Assembly: GCA_934154785.1 (NCBI GenBank)
Contig: CAKPGL010000001.1
Coordinates: forward strand, 366,477 to 430,476
Reading direction: 5' to 3'
Source of the DNA: an uncultured Bacilli bacterium
GTDB taxonomy: Bacteria; Bacillota_I; Bacilli_A; RF39; UBA660
DNA: 64,000 nucleotides
The stretch's first letter is position 1; every line of letters starts with the position of its first letter. The notes under the pieces were generated by a model that was not told the DNA's origin, did no database searches, and saw only the letters and a program-made list of their open reading frames with translations. Made by a program: the position numbers and the translations under genes. Positions 5,326 to 63,863 of the stretch are shown here, piece after piece.

Positions 5326-5847
5326 ATGGAAATATATATTCCAGACATTTATCAAAAGAGTATTTACGTTATAGATTATCAAAAATTAATAAATAGAGGT
5401 ATTAAGTGCTTATTATTTGATTTAGATAACACCTTAGTACCTATTAGTGATAAAAAGCCTAGTGAAAAATTAAAAAAATTTATTGATAAATTAAAAGAGA
5501 TGGGATTTAAGGTAGTAATATTTTCTAATAGTAATAAACATCGCTTATTGCCTTTTAAAAATGATTTAGATGTAGATTGTTCTGCTTCTAGTCATAAACC
5601 TCGTCCCACTAAGTTTTTACAGGTATTAAAATTATATGGTTACTCAATTAGTGAAGTTGCTATTATAGGAGATCAATTATTAACTGATGTATTAGGTGGT
5701 AATAGAATTGGTATAACTACTATTTTAGTTAACCCTATTAGCACTAAAGATTTCTTTTGGACAAGGTTTTCACGAAAAAAAGAAGCTAAAATAATGAACA
5801 AATTACGTGATAATGATTTGTTTGCTAAAGGAAGATATTATGAATAA
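5326..5847 (+). CDS. yqeG: YqeG-family HAD-IIIA phosphatase
   Basis: HAD motifs LLFDLDNTL and GDQLLTD. It is followed by yqeH, as in B. subtilis. Confidence 0.8.
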   Translation: MEIYIPDIYQKSIYVIDYQKLINRGIKCLLFDLDNTLVPISDKKPSEKLKKFIDKLKEMGFKVVIFSNSNKHRLLPFKNDLDVDCSASSHKPRPTKFLQVLKLYGYSISEVAIIGDQLLTDVLGGNRIGITTILVNPISTKDFFWTRFSRKKEAKIMNKLRDNDLFAKGRYYE

Positions 5848-6838
5848 GAAATGTATAGGTTGTGGCGCTACTTTACAAACAATTAATACTGAAGAAGTTG
5901 GATATGTTAGAGAGCAAAATCTAGAAAAGAGTAGTTTATGTGAAAGATGTTTTCGTATTAGAAATTATGGTGATTATAAAGTAGTTACCAAGGATAATGC
6001 CGAATATTTAAAAATACTAGAAAGTGTTAATACATCTAATGATTTAGTAGTATTAGTTGTAGATGTATTTAATATTAATGCTTATTTAAATAATCTTTCT
6101 AAAATATTAACTAATCCAATTCTTTTAGTTTTATCTAAAAGAGATATTTTACCTAAGGATATTTATGAACAAAAAATACTTGATTATATGGATAAATATA
6201 ATTTAAATATTGTAGACAAAATATTAATAAGTAGTAATAAAAATTATAATTTAGATGAATTATTTAGTATGATAAATAGTTATAAAAGGAGTAATAGAGT
6301 ATACGTAGTAGGAGAAAGTAATGCTGGTAAGTCTACTTTAATTAATAAATTATTGTATAATTATTCAGACAATAAAACAGTAATAACTACTAGTATGTTA
6401 CCATCTACTACTTTAGACACTATTGAAATAGAATTATCTAGTAGTTTAACATTAATAGATACCCCAGGTTTATTAAGTGATGGTAACATTACTAATATAC
6501 TAACTGGTAATGAATTAAAGAAAGTAGTACCTAGTAAAGAGATGAAACCACTTACTTATCAAATAAAAAGTAAACAATATATATTAATAGATAAATATGC
6601 TTATCTAGAGTTCATAGAACCTACTAATGTAACTTTATTTTTATCTAATAAATTAAGAATTGAGAGATTGTTTTCTTATAAAGGTAATAAAAAACTAGTA
6701 AAAAAGGCTTTATCTGTTAAAAATAATGAAGATATTGTTATAAATGGTTTATGTTTTATTAAAGTAAGTAAATCAGCTAAAATAAATATATATATTTTAG
6801 AAGGAGTTAATGTTTATTTAAGAGATTCTCTTATTTAA
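5840..6838 (+). CDS. yqeH: ribosome biogenesis GTPase YqeH
   Basis: N-terminal zinc ribbon (CIGCG...CERCFR) and a circularly permuted GTPase with GESNAGKST. Start taken at the ATG of MNKKCIGCG; the ORF track extends 33 nt further upstream. Confidence 0.8.
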   Translation: MNKKCIGCGATLQTINTEEVGYVREQNLEKSSLCERCFRIRNYGDYKVVTKDNAEYLKILESVNTSNDLVVLVVDVFNINAYLNNLSKILTNPILLVLSKRDILPKDIYEQKILDYMDKYNLNIVDKILISSNKNYNLDELFSMINSYKRSNRVYVVGESNAGKSTLINKLLYNYSDNKTVITTSMLPSTTLDTIEIELSSSLTLIDTPGLLSDGNITNILTGNELKKVVPSKEMKPLTYQIKSKQYILIDKYAYLEFIEPTNVTLFLSNKLRIERLFSYKGNKKLVKKALSVKNNEDIVINGLCFIKVSKSAKINIYILEGVNVYLRDSLI

Positions 6839-6936
6839 GAAATCAATCAATTATTAAATTTCTGATTAGAAATGATAATTGATTGATTTTTTTATCTATT
6901 AGTTATTTGGAATTGAAAAATATATAAAAAAATGTT

Positions 6937-8742
6937 ATGATAGTACTAGATTATGATAGGAGAATGTGTATGTTAGGAACAATTATAGGTACTAGTGATA
7001 ATGAAGTATTAATTAAATTAAATATTAATTTATATGAATTTGGTAGTTTAATCAATTATTATGTAATCATGGAACATGAAGATAGAAAAATAGTTGGAGA
7101 AATAGTTGATATTAAGGATAATATTGCTTATGCTAATTTACTTGGTGAAATTTTAGGTGAAAACTTTGTACCTGGAGTAATAAGAAAACCAGCTTTTTCA
7201 TCGACTGTAAAACTTGTATCAAAAGAAAAGGTGCCACTATTAATAAGTGTTGATAAATATGAAGAAAATAAACATCTTTATATTGGTAATAGTTCCGTTT
7301 ATGATAATGTACCAGTATGTGTTGACATTAACTCATTCTTTAGTAGCCACTTTGCTATATTTGGTTCTACTGGTAGTGGTAAATCCTGTGCCGTAGCGCG
7401 AATTTTACAAAATCTTTTTGAAAAACAACATTCTATTGCGTATAGAGCCAGTATGTTTATATTTGATGCTTATGGTGAATATCATAATGCATTTAAAAAT
7501 ATTAGTAGTAAAGTACCAGAGATAAGTTTTAAAGCTTATACTACGGATACGGGTATAACTGATGCAGAAGTATTAAAAATTCCACTTTGGTTATTAGATG
7601 TTGATGATGTAGCTATATTACTAGGTGCTGAAAATCATAACCAATTACCTATAATAGAAAAAGCTTTAAAGTTAGTTACAGTCTTTGGACAAGAAGAAAG
7701 TTTAGTTATAAAACATAAAAATGATATTATAGCGCGTGCTATTCTTGATATATTAACTAGTGGTAATTTACCTGCACAAATAAGAGATCAAATATTCTCA
7801 ATTTTATCTTATTATAATACTAAGGAATTAAACCTTGAAACAATAATATATCAACCGGGTTATAATCGCCCTTTAAAGCAGTGTTTATTAATAGATGCCA
7901 GTGGTAAGATTAGAGAAATTGATTTATTAACAACTTTCTTTGAAAGTTTCTTAGATGATTCTCTACAATTAAATTTACCAGATGGAACATTTAAATATAC
8001 TTTAAAAAATTTAGTTGATGCTTTTGACTTTGCTCTTATATCTGAAGGAGTATTAAAGAGTGATAAAGTATATGATGACGCTAATGTATTAAAGGTACGT
8101 TTACATTCTTTACTTAATAGTAATAAAAGTATTTATTTTGATGTGCCAGAATATATTACAAAACAACAATATATTAGAAACTTAATTACAGCCCCAAATG
8201 GTCGTAAAGCACAAATTATTAATTTCAATATTAACTCTGTAGATGATAGATTTGCTAAAGTAATTACTAAAATATATTCTAAATTATTATTTAGTTATGC
8301 TAAAGAATTAGAAAATAGAGCGTCTATTCCGTTCCATATATTACTAGAAGAAGCACACAGATATGTTCAAAATGATAGTGATATTAACTTATTAGGTTAT
8401 AATATATTTGATAGAATAGCTAAAGAGGGTAGAAAATATGGTGTACTTTTAGGGCTTATCACACAACGTCCTTCAGAAATGTCACCAACTACTTTATCAC
8501 AGTGTAATAACTTTATTATATTTAAGATGCAACACCCTATAGATGTAGATTATATTAGAGAAATGGTTCCTAATATTACTGATGAAACAGTAAAGAAACT
8601 TAAGATTTTACCTCCAGGAAATTGTATAGCTTTTGGATTAGCATTTAAAATACCAGTATTTATAAAATTAGCTATGCCAGATCCAGAACCATCTAGCAGT
8701 AGTTGTGATATTAGTGGTGTTTGGTTTGTAAATAAAGGATGA
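6937..8742 (+). CDS. HerA/FtsK-superfamily ATPase (DUF87-like) with an N-terminal HAS-barrel-like domain
   Basis: Walker A motif FGSTGSGKSC. HerA-type C-terminal motif GLITQRPSEMSPTTLSQCNNFIIFKMQHP. The N-terminal ~100 aa beta-rich region resembles a HAS barrel. The likely start is the ATG at 6970 (MLGTIIG), after a GGAG RBS. Confidence 0.6.
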   Translation: MIVLDYDRRMCMLGTIIGTSDNEVLIKLNINLYEFGSLINYYVIMEHEDRKIVGEIVDIKDNIAYANLLGEILGENFVPGVIRKPAFSSTVKLVSKEKVPLLISVDKYEENKHLYIGNSSVYDNVPVCVDINSFFSSHFAIFGSTGSGKSCAVARILQNLFEKQHSIAYRASMFIFDAYGEYHNAFKNISSKVPEISFKAYTTDTGITDAEVLKIPLWLLDVDDVAILLGAENHNQLPIIEKALKLVTVFGQEESLVIKHKNDIIARAILDILTSGNLPAQIRDQIFSILSYYNTKELNLETIIYQPGYNRPLKQCLLIDASGKIREIDLLTTFFESFLDDSLQLNLPDGTFKYTLKNLVDAFDFALISEGVLKSDKVYDDANVLKVRLHSLLNSNKSIYFDVPEYITKQQYIRNLITAPNGRKAQIINFNINSVDDRFAKVITKIYSKLLFSYAKELENRASIPFHILLEEAHRYVQNDSDINLLGYNIFDRIAKEGRKYGVLLGLITQRPSEMSPTTLSQCNNFIIFKMQHPIDVDYIREMVPNITDETVKKLKILPPGNCIAFGLAFKIPVFIKLAMPDPEPSSSSCDISGVWFVNKG

Positions 8743-9818
8743 TGAAAATGAGTAAGATAAACGATAATACTTACGTAAATAAAATAAAAAAAGAAATTAT
8801 GGAAGGTACTTTTGCTACGAAAGAAGATTTAATGAATTTTCTAATTAAAAATAGACAAAATATTTTAAATGATCCATTTTTTAATCAAGAATTAAATAAT
8901 TCATTTATAAAACTTAATTTGGAAACTATGAGTACTATGGAAAAAGAACTTTTAGAGTATTATGATAAAAGAAAAAATAATGATCTAAACTCTTTAAATT
9001 TAGATGGAGTATCAGGCTTTCAGGTTGATGATAAAGATTATATAAAATATAAAGATAAAGATGGAAATATTTCAGTTATTGATAATTCTCTTAGTAATAG
9101 AAACTTTGTGCAAGAATTTCAAGATAGACAAAATAATTTAGATTCAAATTCGCAAATGGATGCTGATAAAAGTAAAGAAGAGATAATGAATCAAATTACT
9201 AAAGAAAAAGTAAATGTTAATTTATCTAGTTCTAATGATGTAAATGTAAGAGATTTAACAGTAGAAGAAAAAAGACAATTTGCATCAATAATGCATTTAC
9301 CTGATGCTGATAATATTAACTTTTTAGTAGAACCAACAAGAAATATCTATATAAATAAAGATACTGGCGAAACTTATTTTGTAAATAAAAACCAGTATGG
9401 AGAGTTAGAAGTACATAAGGCAAATGAAGTAACTTCCGAAACCAAAAAAGAAGCTAGTGCCGTTATAAATAATAATGGTCAACAACAACAAGTAACAATG
9501 GAAACACCAATTGAGCCAAAATTTGAAGAACTTGGAGATTCTGATTTAGAGTACATTTATGAAAATAAATTAAATACCCTTACTTTAGAACAACAAGAAA
9601 GATTAAAAGAAATAATAAAAGAAAGAAAAGAAAAACAACTTGAACAATCATCTTTAGAAAAAAATAAAGTATCAGAAAAGCAATTTGTTAAAAAATTAAA
9701 TACTGTTTTACATACGCCTTATAATGGTTTTGTTAGTCTTGTTTTCTTATGTTCAACAGTAGGTTTCTTTGCCTTAGGATTCTTATTGTTAATAATGATT
9801 AAACTTAATATTAGTTAG
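8739..9818 (+). CDS. tail-anchored low-complexity/coiled-coil protein (hypothetical), translationally coupled to the HerA-like ATPase
   Basis: ATGA start/stop overlap with the upstream gene. N/Q/K/E-rich with a charged coiled-coil-like stretch (EQQERLKEIIKERKEKQLEQ). Single C-terminal TM helix (FVSLVFLCSTVGFFALGFLLLIMI). Confidence 0.45.
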   Translation: MMKMSKINDNTYVNKIKKEIMEGTFATKEDLMNFLIKNRQNILNDPFFNQELNNSFIKLNLETMSTMEKELLEYYDKRKNNDLNSLNLDGVSGFQVDDKDYIKYKDKDGNISVIDNSLSNRNFVQEFQDRQNNLDSNSQMDADKSKEEIMNQITKEKVNVNLSSSNDVNVRDLTVEEKRQFASIMHLPDADNINFLVEPTRNIYINKDTGETYFVNKNQYGELEVHKANEVTSETKKEASAVINNNGQQQQVTMETPIEPKFEELGDSDLEYIYENKLNTLTLEQQERLKEIIKERKEKQLEQSSLEKNKVSEKQFVKKLNTVLHTPYNGFVSLVFLCSTVGFFALGFLLLIMIKLNIS

Positions 9819-9831
9819 TAGGAGTTGAGTT

Positions 9832-10701
9832 ATGACTAGAGTAAATATTACGTATTTTTTAATTTTAATTACTTGGTACATTATATATATTATTTTTATG
9901 ATTTACTTATATTTTAGATATAGTAGACCATATAAAGTAAAAAAAATGTCTAAGTATTATAAAGATATCCCTGAAAAGCTAAATCCTACTGAACTTAGCA
10001 TGCTAATATATCATAAAATTACACCTAGTACTTTAAGTGCTACTATTGCATATTTAATTGAACAAGGATTAGTAATTAGAGATGGTAATATCTTAAGAAA
10101 AATAGAATCGGAACAATTATTATCTACAAGTCAAAATAGTGCTATTGAAATATTGTTTGATGTATTAGGTGATGGTAAGAAAGTAGATGTAACAAAAATA
10201 GATGGTTTTTGTCATAGTAATTCTACTGCTACAGATTATTTGTTAGCGTATGATATTTGGAATAATTTAGCTTTAAGAGAAGCTTCTAATAAACAATTTT
10301 ATGTTCAAAAACTAGATTATGAATTAGTAAGATGGTTTCAAATAATAGGTTATGTCTTGGCAGTTTTAAACTTTGTTTTTGGTATTCATAATGTAATGGG
10401 CTATGTAATTGTATTACCAGCATATTTTATATTACAATACTTTTATAAAACATATAAACGTACAAGAGAATATAATGAAGAATTTTATAAGTGGTTAGGG
10501 TTTGGTAATTATTTAGCAACATTTTCATCTAAAGATGAAATGAATGTAAATCATAGCACTGCCCTTGTATATAGTCTTATTTTAGATAAAGTATCACATA
10601 CAGAACAAGTATTACGTAATGAACAATTCTTAACTAATTTAGATAAATCACTACAAAAGTGTTATAGAAAGGCTTTCTTTTTTGGAAATAGGAAAATATA
10701 A
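9832..10701 (+). CDS. membrane protein (hypothetical; N-terminal TM helix, soluble domain, then two TM helices)
   Basis: Hydrophobic segments ITYFLILITWYIIYIIFMIYLYF and VLAVLNFVFGIHNVMGYVIVLPAYFILQYF. GGAG RBS. Sits 13 nt after the previous gene. Confidence 0.45.
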   Translation: MTRVNITYFLILITWYIIYIIFMIYLYFRYSRPYKVKKMSKYYKDIPEKLNPTELSMLIYHKITPSTLSATIAYLIEQGLVIRDGNILRKIESEQLLSTSQNSAIEILFDVLGDGKKVDVTKIDGFCHSNSTATDYLLAYDIWNNLALREASNKQFYVQKLDYELVRWFQIIGYVLAVLNFVFGIHNVMGYVIVLPAYFILQYFYKTYKRTREYNEEFYKWLGFGNYLATFSSKDEMNVNHSTALVYSLILDKVSHTEQVLRNEQFLTNLDKSLQKCYRKAFFFGNRKI

Positions 10702-11336
10702 TGAAATACATTTTGGATGACAAAGAATATAATGTTGAAATAGTTCGTAAGAACAATAGAAACACTTATGTTAGAGTAAAAGATGATCTAACTATTTATG
10801 TTACAACTTCTATCTTTACGACTGAAAAACAAATATTAAAACTCCTAAATGAAAATCATAATTTTCTAAAATCAACTATCCAATCAAAAAAGAAAAGACT
10901 ACCTGATCCTGATAGAATAAATTATTTAGGACAAAGTTATTATATTGCTATATCTAGATTAATGGATGATGTTTATTTTATGGGATTTAAAGTATTTACA
11001 CCTAGTAAAGAATTTCTTTATAAATGGTGTGATAAAAAAGTAGCAAAACTATTTCAAGAAAGATATGACCTATATTATAATAAATTTGAAGAAGATATTC
11101 CTTATTATAAATTAAAATTTCGTAAAATGAAAAGTAGATGGGGAGTATGTAATAAAAAAAGTAAGACTATTACTCTTAATACTAGATTATTAGAGTATGA
11201 ACTTCCTTGTTTAGACTATGTTATAGTTCATGAACTTAGTCATTTAATAGAATTTAATCATTCTAAGAACTTTTGGGCAATTGTTGAAAAATACTATCCA
11301 GATTACAAAAGTATTAAAAAAATCTTAAAGTATTAA
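10701..11336 (+). CDS. DUF45/YgjP-like (SprT/WLM-type) zinc metallohydrolase
   Basis: HExxH motif VIVHELSHLIEFNHSKNFW, typical of the YgjP/DUF45 family. Its start codon overlaps the stop of the upstream gene (TAATG). Confidence 0.6.
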   Translation: MKYILDDKEYNVEIVRKNNRNTYVRVKDDLTIYVTTSIFTTEKQILKLLNENHNFLKSTIQSKKKRLPDPDRINYLGQSYYIAISRLMDDVYFMGFKVFTPSKEFLYKWCDKKVAKLFQERYDLYYNKFEEDIPYYKLKFRKMKSRWGVCNKKSKTITLNTRLLEYELPCLDYVIVHELSHLIEFNHSKNFWAIVEKYYPDYKSIKKILKY

Positions 11337-11377: not shown

Positions 11378-11548
11378 ATGAAAGTTAAATTGTTTGATGA
11401 AAATCATGAAAAAGACCTAGAAGCTTCAGTTAATAATTTTTTAAGTGAATTAGAAGGTGAAGTAATAGAAATTAAATATCAAGTAGCAGTAGGTGTTTTC
11501 TCAGAAGAACAAGTATTTTGCTTTTCAGCAATGATTATATATACATAA
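11378..11548 (+). CDS. Cse60-like small sporulation protein (57 codons; not present in the supplied ORF track)
   Basis: The translation MKVKLFDENHEKDLEASVNNFLSELEGEVIEIKYQVAVGVFSEEQVFCFSAMIIYT resembles the B. subtilis Cse60/YteV family (DUF2758), as I recall it. Confidence 0.45.
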   Translation: MKVKLFDENHEKDLEASVNNFLSELEGEVIEIKYQVAVGVFSEEQVFCFSAMIIYT

Positions 11549-16392: not shown

Positions 16393-16980
16393 ATGGAAAA
16401 CAATGATAAGAAGTTTAGAGCTTTAGCGATAGCTGCTATATGTATTGCAATAGTTGGTATTTCAATTGCGTATGCTGCATTAGGTGCTGTATTAAATGTA
16501 ACAGGTACTGCTACTGTTAGTACAGCAAACTCTTGGAATGTTGCGGCAACACAAGGTAGTTGTACTAAAACTGCTGGTAGTCCAAGTGTTACTAAAAATT
16601 TAACTACTGTTGGTCAAACTGCTACTTGGTCAGCTTCATTTGTTGCTCCGGGGGATCAAATAACTTGTACATTTGATTGGACAAATTCTGGTAGTATCGA
16701 CGCAGCAGTTACAAATTTAGTTGTTAATGCTAGTGGCGACGCAAAAGATTATTTTACTTATAATGTTACAATGGGAACTACAGCTTTAAGTGCAGTTGTG
16801 CCTAAAAACAAATATTTAAAAGCTGGTAGTACAAAAACTGTTACTATGGTAGTTACATTTGATGAAAATAGCAACTTAACAAGTCAACAATTAGCTGACC
16901 TTGATACAAAATCTGCAACATTTACAGCTGCTTTTGAATTTGAACAAGCAGATAGTAGTATTACTTATACCGAATTATAA
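16393..16980 (+). CDS. TasA/camelysin-like secreted protein with a SipW-type signal peptide (paralog 1)
   Basis: Basic N-terminus, a hydrophobic segment and VAYA|ALGAVLNVTGTATV. It is immediately upstream of a SipW-like peptidase. Conserved C-terminus ATFTAAFEFEQADSSITYTEL. Confidence 0.5.
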   Translation: MENNDKKFRALAIAAICIAIVGISIAYAALGAVLNVTGTATVSTANSWNVAATQGSCTKTAGSPSVTKNLTTVGQTATWSASFVAPGDQITCTFDWTNSGSIDAAVTNLVVNASGDAKDYFTYNVTMGTTALSAVVPKNKYLKAGSTKTVTMVVTFDENSNLTSQQLADLDTKSATFTAAFEFEQADSSITYTEL

Positions 16981-17069
16981 TAGTTAAAAATTGTGATAGT
17001 CGCTCGCGTTATTATAACCTTTTTAACGTCCATATACAGATATTGATATTATAGATAAGGAAGAAAAAT

Positions 17070-17666
17070 ATGGGAAAAGATAGAAAATTTAGAACATTAG
17101 CTATTGCTGCAATTTGTGTAGCTATAGTTGGCGTATCAGTTGCATACGCAGCATTAAGCGCAGCATTAAATGTAACAGGTACTGCTACTGTTGATACAGC
17201 AGGTTCTTGGAATGTTACTCCTACACCTGTAAAATGTACAGCAAAAAATGGAGCATATTTCATAACAGGAGAAGAACATGTAACTACTAAAGATTTTACT
17301 GCAGTAGGTGGAACTGTTAATTGGGATGCAACATTTACAGCACCAAAACAATCAGTAACTTGTACATTTAGTTGGACTAACGGTGGTTCAATTGATGCTG
17401 CTGTTAAAAAATTAGTTGCTACAGTTAATGGAACTCAAGCTGCTAATTTTGATTACACAGTTACAATGGGAAATACAAAATTAACTCCAACTACACCTAA
17501 TAATAAGGTTTTAAAAGCTGGTAGTACAAAAAATGTTACAATGACAGTTATCTTTGATAAAGATGGTAAACTTGAAACATTACCTACAACAGAAGAAACT
17601 GCAACATTTACAGCTGCTTTTGAATTTGCACAAGCAGATAGTAGTGTAACTTATACTGAATTATAA
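17070..17666 (+). CDS. TasA/camelysin-like secreted protein with a SipW-type signal peptide (paralog 2)
   Basis: Same N-terminal motif (KFRTLAIAAICVAIVGVSVAYAALSAALNVTGTATV) and the same C-terminal ~22 aa as paralogs 1 and 3. Confidence 0.5.
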   Translation: MGKDRKFRTLAIAAICVAIVGVSVAYAALSAALNVTGTATVDTAGSWNVTPTPVKCTAKNGAYFITGEEHVTTKDFTAVGGTVNWDATFTAPKQSVTCTFSWTNGGSIDAAVKKLVATVNGTQAANFDYTVTMGNTKLTPTTPNNKVLKAGSTKNVTMTVIFDKDGKLETLPTTEETATFTAAFEFAQADSSVTYTEL

Positions 17667-17684
17667 AAAATAGGAGATATTAAA

Positions 17685-18284
17685 ATGGAAAAAGATAGAA
17701 AATTTAGAGCATTAGCAATTGCTGCAATTTGTGTAGCAGTAGTTGGTGTATCAGTTGCATATGCTGCATTAGGTGCTGCATTAAATGTAACAGGTACTGC
17801 TACTGTTAGTACTAAAGATTCTTGGAATGTAGTCGCTACAAATGCTACTTGTAGAGCTACAGGACAAGCATATTTCTTAGGAACAGATGACCAACATTTA
17901 ACAGAAAAAGTATTTAATGTTGATGGAACTTCATTAACTTGGGATGCAACATTTACCGCACCAAAAGATGCTGTAACTTGTACATTTACTTGGACTAATG
18001 GTGGTTCAATTGATGCTGCTGTTAAAAAATTAGTTGCTGATAAATCAGGAACTCAAGCTGCTAATTTTACTTATGATATTAAAATTGGTGATACTGCTAT
18101 TACTACAGAAAATATAACTGGTAAATACTTAAAAGCTAAAACTTCAAAAGAAGTTACAATTGTTGTTACTTTTGATAAAGATGGTAATCTTACAACATTA
18201 CCTACAACAAAAGAAACTGCAACATTTACAGCTGCTTTTGAATTTGCGCAAGCAGATAGTAGTACAACTTATACAGAATTATAA
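17685..18284 (+). CDS. TasA/camelysin-like secreted protein with a SipW-type signal peptide (paralog 3)
   Basis: Same conserved N- and C-termini. The central ~100 aa diverge between the paralogs. Confidence 0.5.
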   Translation: MEKDRKFRALAIAAICVAVVGVSVAYAALGAALNVTGTATVSTKDSWNVVATNATCRATGQAYFLGTDDQHLTEKVFNVDGTSLTWDATFTAPKDAVTCTFTWTNGGSIDAAVKKLVADKSGTQAANFTYDIKIGDTAITTENITGKYLKAKTSKEVTIVVTFDKDGNLTTLPTTKETATFTAAFEFAQADSSTTYTEL

Positions 18285-18300
18285 TATTAAAGGGATGTGT

Positions 18301-18324
18301 GAGCAAAAGGAAATCCTTTTGCTC
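18301..18324 (+). promoter_or_regulatory. stem-loop between the subunit genes and the peptidase gene; possible partial terminator or attenuator
   Basis: gagcaaaagg-aaat-ccttttgctc, a 10-bp stem with no downstream T-run. Confidence 0.3.
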
Positions 18325-18370
18325 TCATATCGATTATGTATTTAATACAAGAATATTAAAGGGTGATAAA

Positions 18371-19528
18371 ATGATGATGAGATTAAAAAAAATCTTTAAT
18401 AAAGCATATCTAATGCAATTTTTAATAGTTATCATGGTTTTATTTAATATTTTTGTATTAAATACGTATAGACTAAATACTTGGTATCCAACATTATATT
18501 GGGTTGCTTTAGCAATTATTTCTTATTTGATATTTGGATTAAGGAATAGGGTTCCATCCAAATTTATTGATGTTATACAACTTGTATTTATTTATTGTAT
18601 GGGATATGAACTTATTACTTATCTTTCTGGGTTGATACTGGGGTTTGTAAGAAGTCCTTATTCAATGCAAATAGTAACAATGATTAAAAATATAGCACCA
18701 TTTTTGGTTATGATCATTGCACAAGAAATAACAAGATATGCTGTAGTTACTAGATATAAAAAAAATAAGTATGTTCTGGTATCAATAACGATAGCGATAA
18801 TCTTATATGAAATATCTTATAGTATTGGTTCATATGATTTAAAGTCAGCAGCTGAGATCGTAAAGATGTTAACTATATTGGTTGGTGGCTCAATAACAAA
18901 AAACTGCTTGTGCTCTTATCTTGTATATAGAGCTGACTATAAACCGTCTATTTTATATAGATGTGTATTTGAACTTATTATTTATGTAGTACCTATATAT
19001 CCAAATTTAGGAGAATATATAGAAGCTATGGTAGCTATGATATTTCCAGTATTGCTTTTAGTTTCTATAATGGGATTATACGAGAAAAAGAAATATCGTA
19101 AAGAAAAGAAAACTTGGTTTGAGATGGTTGTTTTGTGGATTCCATCAATTATTGTAATGCTATTTATAGTGACATTACAAACAGGAGTATTTAAGTATAA
19201 AACAATGGCAATTGGTTCTCAATCAATGTATCCTAATATTAATAAGGGTGATGTTGTAGTAATAGATCAGTTCAAAGATGAGGAAAGATGCAAAGAAGTA
19301 GTTGAAGGGGAAGTTTTGGTATTTAAACATGATGGTATTATTATAGTTCACAGGGTTGTTAAAATAACTAAAAAGAATAATAGGTATATATTTAATACCA
19401 AAGGTGATAATAATAATGCTAAAGATTCTTATGATATAGATCAGTCACAGGTAGTTGGAGTTGCCAAGTTTAGAATTCCATTCATTGGTGGTCCATCCGT
19501 TTGGTTGAGTGAAACAATTAACGGTTAG
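18371..19528 (+). CDS. ER/archaeal-type (SipW-like, S26B) signal peptidase I domain fused to an N-terminal ~300-aa polytopic membrane domain of unknown function
   Basis: C-terminal ~110 aa carry GSQSMYP (catalytic Ser), IIVHRVV (His) and TKGDNNNAKDSYD (the GDNN motif typical of SipW/Sec11-type peptidases). The N-terminal part has about 8 hydrophobic helices. Start taken at MMMRLKK after a GGGTGA RBS. Confidence 0.65.
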   Translation: MMMRLKKIFNKAYLMQFLIVIMVLFNIFVLNTYRLNTWYPTLYWVALAIISYLIFGLRNRVPSKFIDVIQLVFIYCMGYELITYLSGLILGFVRSPYSMQIVTMIKNIAPFLVMIIAQEITRYAVVTRYKKNKYVLVSITIAIILYEISYSIGSYDLKSAAEIVKMLTILVGGSITKNCLCSYLVYRADYKPSILYRCVFELIIYVVPIYPNLGEYIEAMVAMIFPVLLLVSIMGLYEKKKYRKEKKTWFEMVVLWIPSIIVMLFIVTLQTGVFKYKTMAIGSQSMYPNINKGDVVVIDQFKDEERCKEVVEGEVLVFKHDGIIIVHRVVKITKKNNRYIFNTKGDNNNAKDSYDIDQSQVVGVAKFRIPFIGGPSVWLSETING

Positions 19529-19542
19529 AAAGGAATGTATTT

Positions 19543-20709
19543 ATGAGTAATGGTAAAGAAAAGAGTTTAAATACTGAAGAGCAAGAAAAAGTTATAATGA
19601 TTAATGATAATAAGAATGATAAGAATAAAAGTAAACTTAATAAGAGAATTTATATAGATACTCCACTTAGGATATTTGTATTAGCTGGTTTTGTATTTAT
19701 ATTTGCTTTTCTTTCATTAATATTTTTGAAAAAAGGATTGGAAACAAAAACATATACTAGTATTTATTATAGTGAAAAAAGTAATCTAGATTATAAGGTT
19801 TACCTAAAAGAGAATCCTTATTTCAATGAACCTTTTCTTACTAAAGGTAATCAGTATATAGCAAGTTTGATTAATTATATTGATGCGGATTTTAGTTATG
19901 ATTTTAGTGCATCTAATTTAATTGATTACCAATTTCGTTATTTAATTAAAGCTGATGTTACAGTCTATGAAAAAGGAGATACATCTAAGATACTTTATAA
20001 GTCATCTGATACTTTACTTCCAGAAAAAACAGTTCAATACTCTGGAGCAAGTACTTACTCTATTAGAGAGAATGTAAAAATAGATTATGATAAATATAAC
20101 AATATTGTATCATCATTTAAGAGGGATTACTCTTTAGCATTAGAGAGTCAATTAAAGGTTACATTATATGTATTTATGAATGGTACTTATAAAGAGATTA
20201 AACAACCATTATCATCTTCTCAAAATATGAGTTTAACTATTCCATTAACTGAACAAACAATTAATATTTCTATGAATTATAAGGAAGTTAATGATGCTAA
20301 CGTTGTTGAGGAATATTCAAATGTTGAAACAATAAATATTGTATTCTTTGTATTATTTGGTGTATCACTTATTGCTTCATTAGTATTAACTGTTAAATTA
20401 GTTAGATTCTTAAATAAAATTAAGACTAAAGGTACTGAGTATGATAGAATATTAGGAACAATTTTAAAAGATTATGAAGGTATAGTAGCACGTGTTAAAA
20501 AAGTTCCAGATTTTAGTGGTAGAACAGTTATTGAGTTAGAAACTTTTGATGAGATATTGGATATTAGTGAAAAACTAGATAAACCAATCCTATTCATAGA
20601 AATGCATAAACATCAAAAGAGTTGGTTTATAATTGTTAATCATAATGAAATATATAAATATTCTTTAAAACTAGTTGATGTTGATAAAGCTAGTAACGAA
20701 AAGAAATAA
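19543..20709 (+). CDS. bitopic membrane protein (hypothetical), a candidate accessory or anchor component of the fibre locus
   Basis: Charged N-terminus, a TM helix at about residues 45-65, a ~190-aa extracytoplasmic domain, a second TM helix (INIVFFVLFGVSLIASLVLTV), then a ~100-aa cytoplasmic tail. Last gene before a terminator. Confidence 0.4.
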   Translation: MSNGKEKSLNTEEQEKVIMINDNKNDKNKSKLNKRIYIDTPLRIFVLAGFVFIFAFLSLIFLKKGLETKTYTSIYYSEKSNLDYKVYLKENPYFNEPFLTKGNQYIASLINYIDADFSYDFSASNLIDYQFRYLIKADVTVYEKGDTSKILYKSSDTLLPEKTVQYSGASTYSIRENVKIDYDKYNNIVSSFKRDYSLALESQLKVTLYVFMNGTYKEIKQPLSSSQNMSLTIPLTEQTINISMNYKEVNDANVVEEYSNVETINIVFFVLFGVSLIASLVLTVKLVRFLNKIKTKGTEYDRILGTILKDYEGIVARVKKVPDFSGRTVIELETFDEILDISEKLDKPILFIEMHKHQKSWFIIVNHNEIYKYSLKLVDVDKASNEKK

Positions 20710-28447: not shown

Positions 28448-28473
28448 ATTGTCAAAGAGTCTGTTCTAATTTT
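28448..28473. repeat. direct repeat copy 1 (attgtcaaagagtctgttctaatttt), just 3' of the KilA-N gene stop
   Basis: 24 of 26 positions match copy 2 at 29412..29437. On the minus strand it encodes a KLEQTL* pseudo-C-terminus. Confidence 0.7.
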
Positions 28474-29357
28474 TACAGTGGCAATTCTTGTTTAGTGTTA
28501 ACATCATTTTCAATATATTTTAGATTACTAAATGATTTATTATTTCTTAGTAATTCCATTTGTTTTCTAGCAATGTTATTTAATCTAACGAGCCTTTCAT
28601 TTTGTGGTATTTTCATTTCAATCAACTCTGCATTAATGTTTTCCAAATTATTTAATATTACTAAATGAAGTAGATCAGTATAGTCTCTGATGTTACTATT
28701 TTTGGACAATTCTGAATTATCTTTTCTCCATTCTTTAGCAGTAATACCAAATAAAGCAACATTTAAGACGTCTGCTTCTTCTGCATATATAAATTTTTTT
28801 TGTTCCTCTGTTAAAGTAGGAACAATTATATTTTTTATAGCATCAGTGTGAACTATGTAATTAACCTTTGATAAAATTCTATTGGCGTGCCAATCAATTT
28901 TATTTTGATATGCTTCATTTCTCTTTAACCTTTGAAATTCTTGAATAACATATAACTTAAATTCTGGGCTTAACCAACTAGCAAATTCAAATGCAATATC
29001 ACTTCTAGCATATGTTCCGCCGTTATTACCTGATTTAGAAATTATTCCAATAGCGTTTGTTTCCTTAATCCACTTTTGTGGCGAAATTTTAAATTTATTA
29101 CTGCCAGCTTCGTTTTGAAACGCGTCGAATTCGACACGTTTGAAATTTTCATTGTTAATACTTTCCCACAAGCCTAAATAGGAAATAACATCTTTATTTC
29201 TCATCCAATTTTGTATTGGATATCTAGGGTCGTCTTCATCAGCATATTTTGCCAAATCAGTAAGTGATATATATTCATTATTATTAATTCTTAAAACACC
29301 AATCTTTTGTTCTTTTACTTTAATTTCAGTTTTTATACTTTCTTTATTCATAGTCAC
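28473..29357 (-). CDS. KilA-N domain-containing protein (phage/mobile-element associated)
   Basis: N-terminal YISLTDLAKYADEDDPRYPIQNWMRNKDVISYLGLWE is typical of KilA-N/APSES-type DNA-binding domains. AAGGA RBS. Confidence 0.6.
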   Translation of the reverse strand: MTMNKESIKTEIKVKEQKIGVLRINNNEYISLTDLAKYADEDDPRYPIQNWMRNKDVISYLGLWESINNENFKRVEFDAFQNEAGSNKFKISPQKWIKETNAIGIISKSGNNGGTYARSDIAFEFASWLSPEFKLYVIQEFQRLKRNEAYQNKIDWHANRILSKVNYIVHTDAIKNIIVPTLTEEQKKFIYAEEADVLNVALFGITAKEWRKDNSELSKNSNIRDYTDLLHLVILNNLENINAELIEMKIPQNERLVRLNNIARKQMELLRNNKSFSNLKYIENDVNTKQELPL

Positions 29358-29411
29358 GTCCTTTCTTGTTTCTTAAGTTGAATAAGTTTTAAATTTTTTA
29401 ATTTTCAATTA

Positions 29412-29437
29412 ATTGTCAAAGTGTCTGTTCCAATTTT
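29412..29437. repeat. direct repeat copy 2 (attgtcaaagtgtctgttccaatttt), overlapping the last 7 codons and stop of the radical-SAM gene
   Basis: On the minus strand it encodes ...RKLEQTL*, the native C-terminus of the 29416..30357 gene. Confidence 0.7.
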
Positions 29438-30357
29438 CTACCTTGATAAGAATCTCTTCTTTTTAGTTCTTTATCTATATCATTTAATACACAAAACTTT
29501 TTTACTAACCAATTTGGTTCGATTAAATCTTCTTTTTTAGGGTCACCAGTAATTCTATTAATAACTATTTCTGGTCTTAGATATTCTAGTTCATCACAAA
29601 CAATATCAACATATTCTTCTTTAGTAAGGACATGAAATTTTTCTTTTTCATAAAACTTTTCTAAAGCAGTATTTTTTAAAATACTTAACATATGTATTTT
29701 TATACCTTGAATATCTAATTGATTTATGTGTTTAATAGTTTCAATCATCATTTCTTTTGTTTCAAAAGGTAAGCCATTAATAATATGAACTACAACATTA
29801 ATATTTCTTTTTCTAAGTTCTGTTACCATATTATCAAAACACTCTAAGGAATGACATCTATTTATTAGTTTTGTTGTAGTAGGGTGTATTGTTTGTAGGC
29901 CGAGTTCAATAGTTAAATAAGTTTTTTTATTTAATTCTTCTAAGTATTCTAAGCATTCTTCATTAATAGCATCAGCACGAGTAGCGATATTTAAGCCAAC
30001 TACATTATCTAGTTTTAATATGGTTTCATATTTTTCCTTTAATACAGATACTGGTGCGTAAGTATTAGTATTAGCTTGAAAATAACCTATGTATAAACTA
30101 TTCGGCCATTTCTTAGAAATCATATCTTTTACTTCATTAAATTGTGTTATTAAGTCTTTTTCTTTATCTCCGGCGAATTCTCCACTACCTAGTTTGGAGC
30201 AATATATACAACCGCCATAGCCTACAGTTCCGTCAATATTAGGACAGGAAAATCCAGCATTAAGACTAACTTTAAATACTTTACTATTAAATTTATGTTT
30301 ATAAAAATAATCTAAAGTATGATATCTTTTATTAGAATCACTATATTTAAATGTCAT
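29416..30357 (-). CDS. TIGR01212-family radical SAM protein
   Basis: CPNIDGTVGYGGCIYC cluster near the N-terminus and overall similarity to the YhcC/TIGR01212 family. Confidence 0.7.
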   Translation of the reverse strand: MTFKYSDSNKRYHTLDYFYKHKFNSKVFKVSLNAGFSCPNIDGTVGYGGCIYCSKLGSGEFAGDKEKDLITQFNEVKDMISKKWPNSLYIGYFQANTNTYAPVSVLKEKYETILKLDNVVGLNIATRADAINEECLEYLEELNKKTYLTIELGLQTIHPTTTKLINRCHSLECFDNMVTELRKRNINVVVHIINGLPFETKEMMIETIKHINQLDIQGIKIHMLSILKNTALEKFYEKEKFHVLTKEEYVDIVCDELEYLRPEIVINRITGDPKKEDLIEPNWLVKKFCVLNDIDKELKRRDSYQGRKLEQTL

Positions 30358-30482
30358 ATAACCACTTCCTACCCAAGATTATAACAAATTCTTAGTAAAA
30401 ATAGTGAAAAAATGGTGAAAAATCATAAAAAACCTTTAATTTTATTAAAAACAAGTGTTATAATGATAATGGAGGTTATATA

Positions 30483-31922
30483 ATGAAAAAAGATAAGAGT
30501 AAGAGAAGTAGTAAGTATAGTTTACTAAAAGCTATAGGTATTGCATTTTTGATTTTTGCAGTTCTTTCTTGGATAATTCCAGCAGGAACTATTAGTAATG
30601 GTACCTATACAAAAAATACTGATGGTACAATACCAGTTGGTTTATTTGGACTATTTAGTAATCCACTATATAGTTTTGGCATATTTGCTCAATATTTTCT
30701 ATTGTTACTAAGTATCGGTGGATTATATGGTGTATTAAATAAAACTGGTGTATATACTAAAATAGTTGATAACTTTGGAAGTTGTGTTGAAAAACATAAA
30801 AAATTATGGTTAATAGTTATTACATTTTTGTTAGCATTAATTTCTTCTATAGTTGGTAATCAAATAGTATTATTTATTTTAGTACCATTCTTTGTAGCAG
30901 TTCTTATGAAAGGTGGATTTAATAAAGTTACATCTATAGCCGCAACTGCTGGTGCAATTATTATTGGTGTCGCAGGTTCAATTTTTGGTAATGATGTAAT
31001 TTATATTAGTTTCTTTAAGGCAAAAGTATTTACAGGAACAATAACTAAAGTAATATATTTTGTTTTAATAACAACTTTATATGTGTTATTCCTATTACTT
31101 CAAAATAAGATGTTATCAAAGAAAGAAAAAAAATTGGATATTAAAGATTTAGACATCTTTAAATCAGAAGAAATTCCTTTATATGAAAAAAACGAAAGCA
31201 ATAAGAGTGCTATTCCACTAATTATAATGAGTATTATATTATTGTTAATAGTATTTATTGGATGTATTAACTGGACTTATACATTTGATGTAAGTTTCTT
31301 TACAGAACTAGATACAAAAATTAATGATATTTCTTGGTTACCTAAAGTATTTGGTACTTTACCAGTAATGGGATATTTTGGTAATTATGATGTTGCTGCA
31401 GTAATTTTAATATTTACATTTATAATTAAATGGCTTTATAGCATTAAATTTGATGAATTTATTGATGCTTTTAAAGATGGTATGAAACAAATGATAACAC
31501 CTGCAGTATATGCCATTTTAGCATCTACTATATTTGCAGTAATGGTTAACTCTAATACTGGTGCTAATATTAGTACAACTATTTCTAATTCTATTTTAGG
31601 TATTAGTGATAAATTCTATGTATTAACAGTTACATTACTTGGTTTTGTTGGTGGCTTCTTCTTTAATGATTTAGCATACTTAACTAATAGCATATATAGT
31701 TTATTAGCAACTTATGGTTCTGCTAGTGTAACAATAATGGGTATTTTATTACAAACAGGATACGCTATTGCTATGTTATGCTTACCAGTAAGTGTAGTTT
31801 TAATAGCTGCTTTAAAATACTTAAATGTATCTTACAAAGAATGGATGAAATACATTTATAAATTCTTACTTGCTATGTTTGTCCTTGTCATTGTATTTGG
31901 ATTAATAGCATTAGCACTTTAA
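30483..31922 (+). CDS. polytopic transporter-like membrane protein, possibly YfcC family
   Basis: Basic N-terminus then LLKAIGIAFLIFAVLSWIIPAG, resembling YfcC-family starts. About 12 TM helices. Confidence 0.4.
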   Translation: MKKDKSKRSSKYSLLKAIGIAFLIFAVLSWIIPAGTISNGTYTKNTDGTIPVGLFGLFSNPLYSFGIFAQYFLLLLSIGGLYGVLNKTGVYTKIVDNFGSCVEKHKKLWLIVITFLLALISSIVGNQIVLFILVPFFVAVLMKGGFNKVTSIAATAGAIIIGVAGSIFGNDVIYISFFKAKVFTGTITKVIYFVLITTLYVLFLLLQNKMLSKKEKKLDIKDLDIFKSEEIPLYEKNESNKSAIPLIIMSIILLLIVFIGCINWTYTFDVSFFTELDTKINDISWLPKVFGTLPVMGYFGNYDVAAVILIFTFIIKWLYSIKFDEFIDAFKDGMKQMITPAVYAILASTIFAVMVNSNTGANISTTISNSILGISDKFYVLTVTLLGFVGGFFFNDLAYLTNSIYSLLATYGSASVTIMGILLQTGYAIAMLCLPVSVVLIAALKYLNVSYKEWMKYIYKFLLAMFVLVIVFGLIALAL

Positions 31923-49752: not shown

Positions 49753-49829
49753 ATACTATTTACAAAATTTAGTTTTATGATATAATTATTGGTATAAAAG
49801 AAAAGCGAAGAAAAAGAAGTAGTAATATA

Positions 49830-49997
49830 TTGATGCTTTTAAGAGAGTTTGTGGTTGGTGAAAACAAATAAGTTAGATATATGAATTCGTCTTTGGAGCT
49901 GTTGTTACCGGTAATGCGTTATAGTTTTGAGGTTATATTTTATAACAAATTAAGGTGGTACCACGTAATCACGTCCTTATAGGATGTGATTTTTTTA
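49830..49997 (+). promoter_or_regulatory. T-box riboswitch leader of pheS-pheT
   Basis: Conserved T-box sequence aattaaggtggtaccacg (49948-49966) overlaps the 5' arm of a terminator (aatcacgtcc...ggatgtgatt plus T7). An AGAGAG stem-I element lies upstream, and a TTC-containing candidate specifier sits at about 49888. Confidence 0.6.
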
Positions 49998-58340: not shown

Positions 58341-58721
58341 ATGGATAAAAAGGTAGAATTTAAAAATTTTGTTAAAGAGAATCCTCGTCTAATTAAGTTT
58401 GTTAAAAATGGCGAAATGACATGGCAAAAATTTTATGAACTTTATGATATGTATGGTACTGATGATAATGTTTGGGCAAATTATTTAAAAGATACAGTTG
58501 CTGCTACGGCTGCCACAGCAGCGGCGGCAACAACTGCTTCTGGTTTATCTTTTAATGATGTAATTAATTGGGTAAAAGGTATTGATTTAGATAGTGTTCA
58601 GTCGGGCATTAATAATATTCAAAGGGTAGTAGGTATGGTTCAAGACTTTTCTAAAAAAGATACTAAGACGACTAAAGAAGAATATAAACCCCGTCCAGTA
58701 TATAAACACTTTGAAGACTAA
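58341..58721 (+). CDS. YlbD-like (spore-coat-associated) protein
   Basis: FKNFVKENPRLIKFVKNGEMTWQKFYELYDMYGTDDNVW resembles B. subtilis YlbD as recalled. It lies just upstream of a YlbE-like ORF and rsmD, matching the ylbD-ylbE-...-ylbH synteny. Confidence 0.4.
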   Translation: MDKKVEFKNFVKENPRLIKFVKNGEMTWQKFYELYDMYGTDDNVWANYLKDTVAATAATAAAATTASGLSFNDVINWVKGIDLDSVQSGINNIQRVVGMVQDFSKKDTKTTKEEYKPRPVYKHFED

Positions 58722-58942
58722 TGAGTTTAGAATTACAATTTAAAATAAAAAATAATCCTAATTACTTGCGTTATTTAAGAGAACACTCTTATTGGTATAA
58801 AGAATTAAATCGTAATCCTAAAAACTTTCTCTTATTTGAAGAGAAAGTAAAAGAGGATTACAGATTACGTCCAACTGATAGAATTAGTAAAGCTCTAGAA
58901 ATGATAGAAATGGCACAAACTATTATTTCAACTTTAAAATAA
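58721..58942 (+). CDS. YlbE-like small protein
   Basis: 73 aa. Its start overlaps the stop of the previous gene. Position matches ylbE. Confidence 0.35.
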   Translation: MSLELQFKIKNNPNYLRYLREHSYWYKELNRNPKNFLLFEEKVKEDYRLRPTDRISKALEMIEMAQTIISTLK

Positions 58943-63710: not shown

Positions 63711-63786
63711 GCTGAAATAGCTCAGTTGGTAGAGCAGCTCCCTCGTAAAGAGCAGGTCGTAGGTTCGAATCCTATTTTCAGCACCA
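63711..63786 (+). tRNA. tRNA-Thr (anticodon CGT)
   Basis: 76-nt cloverleaf. Acceptor GCTGAAA/TTTCAGC, D-arm GCTC-AGTTGGTA-GAGC, anticodon loop CTCGTAA, T-arm GTAGG-TTCGAAT-CCTAT, encoded CCA. Confidence 0.75.
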
Positions 63787-63789
63787 TTT

Positions 63790-63863
63790 GCTGGTATAGT
63801 ATAATGGTATTACGAGGCCATGGTAAGGCTTTAATCAGTGTTCAATTCACTGTACCAGCACCA
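63790..63863 (+). tRNA. tRNA-Thr (anticodon GGT), with a short or imperfect D-arm
   Basis: Acceptor GCTGGTA/TACCAGC, anticodon arm AGGCC-ATGGTAA-GGCTT, T-arm CAGTG-TTCAATT-CACTG, encoded CCA. Confidence 0.6.

Follow-up and report, generated by a model that had tools for sequence, protein, structure and literature searches.

A 64,000-nucleotide stretch of contig CAKPGL010000001.1 from an uncultured Bacilli bacterium ('the window' in what follows) raises the question of whether four tightly packed genes on one strand work together. They encode a HerA-like ATPase (HerA), a predicted membrane-anchored protein (gene 2), a DUF2207_C membrane protein (gene 3) and a YgjP-like metallohydrolase (gene 4). 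A first interpretation made from the sequence alone, here called the sequence-only reading, had joined them in an operon and offered a membrane-coupled translocase, a defence module or a lineage-specific machine as possible roles. After comparison with related loci, we consider it likely that three units with separate evolutionary histories (HerA, gene 2, and genes 3 and 4 as a pair) make up the cluster, as a composite and not as a dedicated system.

In such a composite, HerA would be a stand-alone member of a vertically inherited clade, with its own promoter-like site after the terminator of yqeH. A rearrangement in this genus would have displaced a radical SAM gene and CitMHS to 29.4–31.9 kb of the window and brought genes 3 and 4 (and gene 2) against HerA. 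In an 89%-coding genome, the outcome would be one tightly packed, probably co-transcribed block.

Conservation of the four-gene block

We examined flanks of up to 8 kb on each side of approximately 170 HerA-anchored loci from related organisms (designated by L numbers). Searches of about 175 loci with tblastn, phmmer and hidden Markov models (HMMs) placed genes 2 and 3 beside HerA only in the species of the window (L001 and L002) and in three close relatives (L086, L092 and L093). An HMM built from 23 gene 2 homologues matched no further locus among the 175, and both genes are absent from the flanks of the other HerA-anchored loci, which number around 165. Over these genes the window is 100% identical to human-gut metagenome contigs, the conspecific L001 among them.

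Even among close relatives the arrangement varies. L086 is 88% identical to the window in HerA, 62% in gene 2, 68% in gene 3 and 71% in gene 4, and the corresponding values for L092 are 78%, 48%, 61% and 57%. L093 (HerA, 80% identical) has the order yqeH–HerA–gene 3–gene 4–cse60, without gene 2; L088 and L089 (HerA, 80%) have HerA–Dus–RDD; and in L091 genes 3 and 4 follow recA. Nine distant relatives have ygjP alone, 43–49% identical to gene 4, at 3–8 kb downstream of herA, in most cases preceded by a minus-strand radical SAM gene and CitMHS. These two genes lie directly 3′ of HerA in at least 13 relatives, and in the window they are found at 29416–31922. Because ygjP sits 3–8 kb from herA in relatives and the radical SAM and CitMHS genes now occupy this distant position, we infer a rearrangement at the level of the genus. 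A search for repeats or mobile-element scars flanking genes 2 and 3 returned only AT-rich chance repeats and a terminator hairpin.

This distribution does not bear out a four-part functional machine: genes 2 and 3 are absent near HerA beyond close relatives, and the variants HerA–gene 3–gene 4, recA–gene 3–gene 4 and HerA–Dus–RDD all occur. The sequence-only reading had asked whether the quartet is conserved and whether it co-occurs with yqeG and yqeH or with defence islands. The quartet is not conserved and we found no defence islands, but the association with yqeG and yqeH is real (detailed below). It was right in recognizing no described system in this combination, as none emerged from library or literature searches; nor is the quartet a conserved housekeeping operon.

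Some points weigh against a composite. HerA adjoins genes 3 and 4 in five of seven species-level contexts (the window, L086, L092, L093 and one 9544-bp contig, tentatively assigned; the exceptions are L088/L089 and L091), and the genes may have acquired a functional link in recent evolution. A complex would also fit the expected location of the four products, each of which would be cytoplasmic, or turned towards the cytoplasm, at the membrane. The finding that gene 2 is not near HerA outside the group covers HerA-anchored loci and not distant gene 2 homologues (37–43% identical; for example, MBE6152067.1); a distant gene 2 homologue and HerA, compared by their National Center for Biotechnology Information (NCBI) accession numbers, are proteins from different metagenome-assembled genomes (MAGs). 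Finally, anti-phage proteins account for all of the closest characterized HerAs, PADLOC recognizes this one as a HerA, and a housekeeping role for it is read from sequence data.

Family, distribution and context of HerA

The HerA protein matches Pfam DUF87 (PF01935) at 3e-27 (96.5 bits versus a cut-off of 23.2) and the PADLOC HerA model PDLC04102 with 383 bits, and has a weak match to the Pfam family FtsK_SpoIIIE (6e-6). Its Walker A (GSTGSGKS, residues 132–139) and Walker B (ILLEEAH, residues 457–463) motifs are intact and invariant in 16 orthologues, and the assignment to the HerA/FtsK superfamily made in the sequence-only reading thus holds. The N terminus, which had been described as HAS-barrel-like, has no Pfam HAS-barrel match at E ≤ 1. 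The best match in the PDB is 9C1M, the HerA of HerA–DUF4297 (158 bits in two stretches), and the alignment, on which a possible HAS-barrel would be based, starts at residue 54. Scores against the NCBIfam anti-phage HerA equivalogs are 172 bits (NF042943; cut-off, 800) and 161 bits (NF042944; cut-off, 850), and those against the HerA repair equivalogs are 96–110 bits (cut-offs, 800–970). Homology to its family predicts that HerA assembles into hexameric rings and uses ATP to move along nucleic acid as a translocase.

Domain fusions were considered as a clue to function and set aside: the longer homologues (663–943 amino acids) add only low-complexity, disordered tails rich in S, N and T, without a Pfam domain. 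Among the partner-less HerAs, P0122, P0124, P0125 and P0133 (753–943 amino acids) carry such S/N/T-rich, probably disordered extensions of 165–350 amino acids at the N or C terminus, and that of P0125 contains a repeated 'EHNPALDFG' motif.

Relatives of HerA are present in at least 583 GTDB species genomes, from a scan of one genome per species; the best 80 relatives (53–91% identical) were analysed. The MAGs that carry them are labelled Bacilli, Tenericutes or Candidatus Faecisoma/Coprosoma and belong to an uncultured, low-GC gut lineage; NCBI places Candidatus Faecisoma in Mycoplasmatota incertae sedis. Mean identity to the window is 68% for HerA, 60% for YqeG and 48% for YqeH, and HerA is more conserved than YqeH in 50 out of 51 loci and more conserved than YqeG in 44 out of 51. 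At HerA identities of at least 60%, the gene immediately 5′ of HerA is yqeH in 49 of 70 loci (median gap, around 70 nt); below 60% identity this holds for none of 52. As judged by tblastn, phmmer and clustering of the open reading frames (ORFs) of 80 loci, yqeG and yqeH are the only neighbours of HerA that recur beyond the genus. The downstream side varies between species and is often on the opposite strand, with radical SAM and CitMHS, LtaS, L28/DnaE, a CDP-alcohol phosphatidyltransferase, Dus/RDD or PFOR.

A metagenome scan added 80 further loci with HerAs 31–73% identical to that of the window. Eight of these loci (L097–L100, L105, L110, L112 and L127) have the order ftsY, a gene for a small transmembrane (TM) protein, ylxM, HerA and ffh, so that HerA is inserted into the signal recognition particle (SRP) operon; the small protein encoded between ftsY and ylxM has 82–166 amino acids (around 90 in most loci) and 2–3 TM helices. 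The order HerA–sepF–divIVA occurs in 14 metagenome loci. FtsY, YlxM, SepF and DivIVA were named by eye from their sequences, without HMMs. Single metagenome HerA loci lie beside UvrA, ValRS, HtpG, a PP2C phosphatase or a canonical FtsK with four TM helices; the last case, L116, led us to reject HerA as a replacement for FtsK.

SIR2 genes are immediately upstream only of the most distant HerA homologues (31–34% identity), in six metagenome loci and two plasmid loci. Plasmid homologues are 31–33% identical, and the best plasmid matches, from Lactobacillus kefiranofaciens and Listeria at 31%, are annotated as a SIR2 family protein with an ATP-binding/DUF87 protein. Viral contigs hold relatives of HerA only at 27–34% identity and without gene 2, and searches of plasmids and viral contigs found no member of the HerA clade above 34% identity. 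Among genes within about 8 kb of HerA in the window or its relatives we saw no NurA-like partner, in agreement with the sequence-only reading, and no SIR2 or DUF4297 partner lies near the HerA of the window.

In a midpoint-rooted neighbour-joining tree, for which the SIR2-linked HerAs were the only outgroups, eight SIR2-linked HerAs (plus one short contig) split from 144 partner-less HerAs. The clades track genomic context, with 82 sequences of the yqeGH type, 30 of the sepF/divIVA type as its sister and 20 of the ylxM/ffh type in a basal position. HerA thus shows conserved synteny and context-matched clades, and not the sporadic or mobile pattern of defence systems.

The sampled loci carry one or two HerA paralogues per genome. 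Two genomes combine a yqeGH-type with a ylxM-type HerA that are 48% identical (L017, 5240–9776; L071, 171–1925 and 8001–9539). Because L017 and L071 each carry both types, we take the ylxM-type HerA to be a paralogous subfamily. Two small pilin-like genes of the N_methyl family lie between the paralogues of L017; an enrichment of N_methyl (type IV pilin-like) genes near HerA was dismissed as chance, with 18 of 84 loci being roughly what the density in the window predicts.

We treat this HerA as a vertically inherited, partner-less clade and as a core gene across a large uncultured lineage of small-genome gut Bacilli. In the literature we found nothing of relevance that links HerA to YqeH or DUF2207, and nothing on the partner-less clade. 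It is possible, and we propose it tentatively, that these proteins are a housekeeping branch of the family, sister to the SIR2-linked HerAs in our sample, that performs a core DNA or nucleoprotein transaction and that in this genus may have recruited a membrane anchor (gene 2). It could, for example, help to handle the chromosome around the time or site of division, or process ends in organisms that lack other machinery for this.

The downstream genes and their transcription

The positions of the four genes and of the signals around them are collected in Table 1.

Table 1. Coordinates, in the window, of the HerA block, its upstream neighbours and the associated signals
Feature	Position	Strand	Description
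HerA ORF	6937..8742	+	601 aa as opened; likely start ATG 6970, giving 590 aa
Gene 2 ORF	8739..9818	+	359 aa as opened; likely start ATG 8748, giving 356 aa
Gene 3	9832..10701	+	289 aa, DUF2207_C membrane protein
Gene 4	10701..11336	+	211 aa, YgjP-like (DUF45) HExxH metallohydrolase
yqeG	5326–5847	+	HAD phosphatase; Pfam families on identical contig L001
yqeH	5840–6838	+	GTPase; Pfam families on identical contig L001
Probable intrinsic terminator of yqeG–yqeH	6837–6893	+	RNA fold; inverted repeat I15
Promoter-like site	6913–6941	+	TTGAAA–17 nt–TATGAT, extended −10 TG; 10/12 consensus matches
Cse60-like ORF	11378–11548	+	56 aa; Pfam Spore_Cse60 on contigs L001, L092 and L093

Gene 2 has no family in Pfam, NCBIfam, PADLOC or PHROGs. 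Its homologues form 23 clusters of 345–359 amino acids that are 37–95% identical and share conserved motifs and a C-terminal TM helix; all 23 members were searched against Pfam without a match. An AlphaFold 2 (AF2) model has a predicted local distance difference test (pLDDT) score of 73.5, and a Foldseek comparison of this model with the PDB gave a best E-value of 0.34, with no NurA or RNase H-like match. The description of gene 2 as an N/Q-rich, tail-anchored coiled-coil protein stands in part. Asparagine and glutamine make up 17% of its residues (8–12% in the five neighbouring proteins compared) and a hydrophobic helix lies at the C terminus (residues 327–355), but the model is mixed alpha/beta rather than a plain coiled coil. 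We predict a lineage-restricted, fast-evolving protein that faces the cytoplasm and has a C-terminal membrane anchor.

Gene 3 matches DUF2207_C (PF20990) at 3e-14 (53.8 bits versus a cut-off of 33), and 21 out of 22 clusters of its homologues carry the same annotation. The AF2 model (pLDDT, 85.6) has no neighbour in the PDB; its three hydrophobic helices (residues 2–30, 160–182 and 188–207) agree with the 3-TM protein originally proposed, and its helical and winged-helix-like inserts are placed in the cytoplasm. The protein corresponds to the C-terminal domain only, without the N-terminal extracellular DUF2207 domain (PF09972) and without a LemA neighbour. LemA, full-length DUF2207 (684–685 amino acids) and DUF5411 are encoded around 5 kb downstream of herA in L085 (14245–16954) and L090 (14016–16658). 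Because the C-terminal part of these full-length proteins is 23–28% identical to gene 3, gene 3 looks like a truncated paralogue of DUF2207.

Gene 4 is, as first described, a hydrolase of the HExxH DUF45/YgjP type, with a match to the YgjP-like family PF01863 at 4e-40 (138.5 bits versus a cut-off of 26), a SprT-like match at 2e-7 and the motif HELSH at residues 177–181. The 1-nt overlap of genes 3 and 4 is kept in all five contexts in which the pair occurs (the window, L086, L091, L092 and L093). Because these include one after recA, we regard genes 3 and 4 as a translationally coupled pair and, on this pattern, as a real unit independent of HerA. Gene 3 would probably keep the hydrolase, a soluble zinc enzyme, at the cytoplasmic side of the membrane or regulate it there. 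We found no literature report of a DUF2207_C–YgjP pairing, in searches that included no dedicated YgjP/DUF45 query.

The Cse60-like ORF lies regularly 3′ of ygjP (the window; L092, 3046–3216; L093, 4649–4819). Other sporulation genes are SpoVA (L086), YlbD/YlbE (at about 58341–58942 of the window) and SspI (L085 and L090). Together with the Cse60-like ORF, these suggest that a lineage placed by NCBI in Mycoplasmatota incertae sedis has genes for sporulation.

The four ORFs, their strand and their tight layout (overlaps or gaps of at most 14 nt) match the sequence-only reading exactly. Genes 2 and 3 are separated by 13 nt (9819–9831) that include an AGGAG ribosome-binding site, and genes 3 and 4 overlap in TAATG (10699–10703). 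An ATGA overlap of HerA and gene 2 (8739–8742), which that reading had also claimed, can be read from the sequence for the ORFs as opened, but gene calls open gene 2 at ATG 8748, probably its start, which leaves a gap of 5 nt after the HerA stop and no overlap. HerA itself probably starts at ATG 6970, later than the ORF opens, because its homologues have around 590 amino acids in all 120 of the database matches listed, gene calls open there, AGGAG precedes it (6958–6962) and the ATG at 6937 lies inside the promoter-like site. The window is around 89% coding, with a GC content of around 25%, and gaps of at most 14 nt occur in 16 of its 51 same-strand neighbour pairs (31%). A run of three such junctions would then have a chance of around 3% if junctions are independent, which makes it no more than slightly unusual.

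The hairpin after yqeH has 18 bp, is AT-rich and is followed by U7 (ΔG, −21.6 kcal/mol; z, −5.4), and none of 200 shuffled sequences was as stable; a consensus terminator scan, which needs three G–C pairs, missed it. The promoter-like site, identified only by its match to the consensus, would be placed to drive HerA from ATG 6970. Among the yqeH–herA spacers of 45 related loci, about a third contain a clear terminator of hairpin and U-run, and those of many relatives have an extended −10-like element (TGTGATAnAAT) just 5′ of the HerA ribosome-binding site. Because the spacers carry such terminators and elements, they suggest that herA is transcribed independently of yqeGH despite the kept adjacency. 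The three internal junctions from HerA to gene 4 have no space for terminators. A single transcript of HerA and the three downstream genes is plausible in the source organism, because a terminator follows yqeH, a promoter-like site precedes HerA and no internal terminator has space. The Cse60-like ORF is possibly its last gene; the hairpin 3′ of this ORF is weak (z, −0.9). Co-transcription is thus a plausible part of the operon idea, but tight spacing does not establish a four-part functional machine.

Other parts of the window were also inspected. At 16393–20709, three tandem paralogues (195–199 amino acids, 56–68% identical), each with an N-terminal hydrophobic anchor or signal, are followed by genes for a Peptidase_S24-like protein and DUF5305. 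The local GC content is 0.33 (around 0.25 elsewhere), and the region resembles a cluster for signal-peptidase-dependent secreted proteins. The stretch 28473–31922 carries KilA-N and radical SAM genes on the minus strand and CitMHS on the plus strand; the latter two, which many relatives have immediately 3′ of herA, are displaced here by around 20 kb. GC skew turns negative at 28–30 kb. A T-box leader at 49799–49981 (113 bits) upstream of pheS–pheT and two tRNA genes at the end of the window (63711–63860) are ordinary features.

Alternatives and comparison with known systems

The four genes could be a recently assembled, group-specific machine, in which a HerA hexamer is held at the membrane by gene 2 and/or the DUF2207_C protein, with the YgjP-like hydrolase acting on the substrate; it may be a membrane-coupled translocase or, by analogy with Cdc48–Wss1, a module that processes DNA–protein crosslinks. 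We regard this as unlikely. The tight or overlapping junctions, bracketed by one promoter-like site and a terminator, fit such a machine, as do the recurrence of HerA–gene 2–gene 3–gene 4 or HerA–gene 3–gene 4 in the window, L086, L092 and L093 and a predicted topology that puts all soluble domains in the cytoplasm. However, hundreds of species have a HerA 53–77% identical to that of the window but lack genes 2 and 3 in its vicinity, and the conserved C-terminal motif of HerA does not vary with the presence of these genes. Gene 2 is dispensable in L093, genes 3 and 4 follow recA in L091, genes 2–4 diverge two to three times faster than HerA and almost a third of the same-strand junctions in the window are as tight.

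We give very little weight to a HerA-based anti-phage module in which gene 2, gene 3 or the YgjP-like protein would be a novel effector in place of SIR2 or DUF4297. The nearest solved or annotated relatives are indeed defence HerAs (9C1M of HerA–DUF4297, 8J4U of Sir2–HerA and the plasmid SIR2–HerA), the PADLOC HerA model scores 383 bits and the region 3′ of HerA is highly variable between species. Yet HerA is syntenic with yqeG–yqeH, evolves more slowly than YqeH, belongs to a clade, apart from the SIR2-linked HerAs, for which plasmids and viral contigs yielded no relative above 34% identity, and stays below the NCBIfam anti-phage cut-offs given above. Genes 2–4 have no PADLOC match, tblastn with eight SIR2 partner proteins found nothing in the 64-kb window, and HerA is surrounded by housekeeping genes, among which neither an integrase nor any further defence gene occurs. 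A defence island was rejected for similar reasons: PADLOC recognizes HerA only, the window has no SIR2, and no close relative turned up among phages, plasmids or viral contigs. A DNA end-resection system of the HerA–NurA type, with gene 2 as a divergent nuclease, is the most improbable of these explanations. HerA classically pairs with an adjacent NurA and gene 2 has no family match, but neither the Pfam searches of all 23 homologues nor Foldseek pointed to NurA, and gene 2 is membrane-anchored and missing from most HerA-bearing relatives. We therefore rejected gene 2 as NurA or another nuclease, given no family match in the four libraries and no PDB fold match; the sequence-only reading had named a recognizable NurA-type gene 2 as an outcome that would remove the novelty of the block, and gene 2 is no such protein.

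Two roles are currently recognized for bacterial HerA, one beside NurA and one as ATPase scaffold in abortive infection (Sir2–HerA and HerA–DUF4297). A large, effector-less, core-syntenic HerA clade, more constrained than the ribosome-assembly GTPase encoded next to it, suggests that this motor has a third use, in housekeeping, and the clade is a possible evolutionary source or sink of defence HerAs. What is new is this core-like, partner-less clade, which is a variant of the known HerA family. In these gut lineages, a HerA flagged by a defence-finder HMM is probably a false positive, and the quartet does not merit an entry as a new machine or defence system. The coupling of genes 3 and 4 provides a first contextual clue for DUF2207_C and YgjP/DUF45.

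The HerA of the HerA–DUF4297 anti-phage system of Bacillus sp. HMH5848 (PDB 9C1M; bioRxiv 10.1101/2024.10.24.620088) shares with the HerA of the window its length class (585 amino acids), the Walker motifs and a C-terminal 'PxPEPxS...W' tail. In contrast to that system, no DUF4297 or other effector is adjacent, and the HerA of the window belongs to a conserved syntenic clade and not to a sporadic defence locus. Similarity to Sir2–HerA (L. kefiranofaciens pWW2 and Listeria plasmids; PDB 8J4U and 8WIV) extends over the full length at 31–34% identity, and the PADLOC and NCBIfam HerA models recognize the protein. However, in the two plasmid loci the SIR2 gene runs into the 5′ end of herA, and in the six metagenome loci it is immediately upstream, whereas the window has yqeH and a terminator in this position, no SIR2 in 64 kb and a HerA of a separate clade.

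Archaeal and Deinococcus HerA–NurA (PDB 4D2I) involves the same ATPase family (97 bits to 4D2I), but here no NurA gene is nearby and the repair equivalog scores fall below their cut-offs. The FtsK/SpoIIIE translocases belong to the same superfamily, and one partner-less HerA subclade adjoins sepF–divIVA; unlike them, the HerA of the window has neither a membrane domain nor a gamma domain, and a canonical FtsK of 757 amino acids with four TM helices is encoded beside the HerA homologue of L116. Gene 3 is homologous to the C-terminal TM domain of the full-length DUF2207 of the LemA–DUF2207 pair but lacks the N-terminal extracellular domain, and the gene upstream of it, gene 2, encodes a C-terminally anchored protein and not LemA. 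Gene 4 resembles YgjP/DUF45 (PF01863) and SprT/WLM-like hydrolases in its full domain and HExxH motif, and differs from them in its apparent translational coupling to a DUF2207_C membrane protein.

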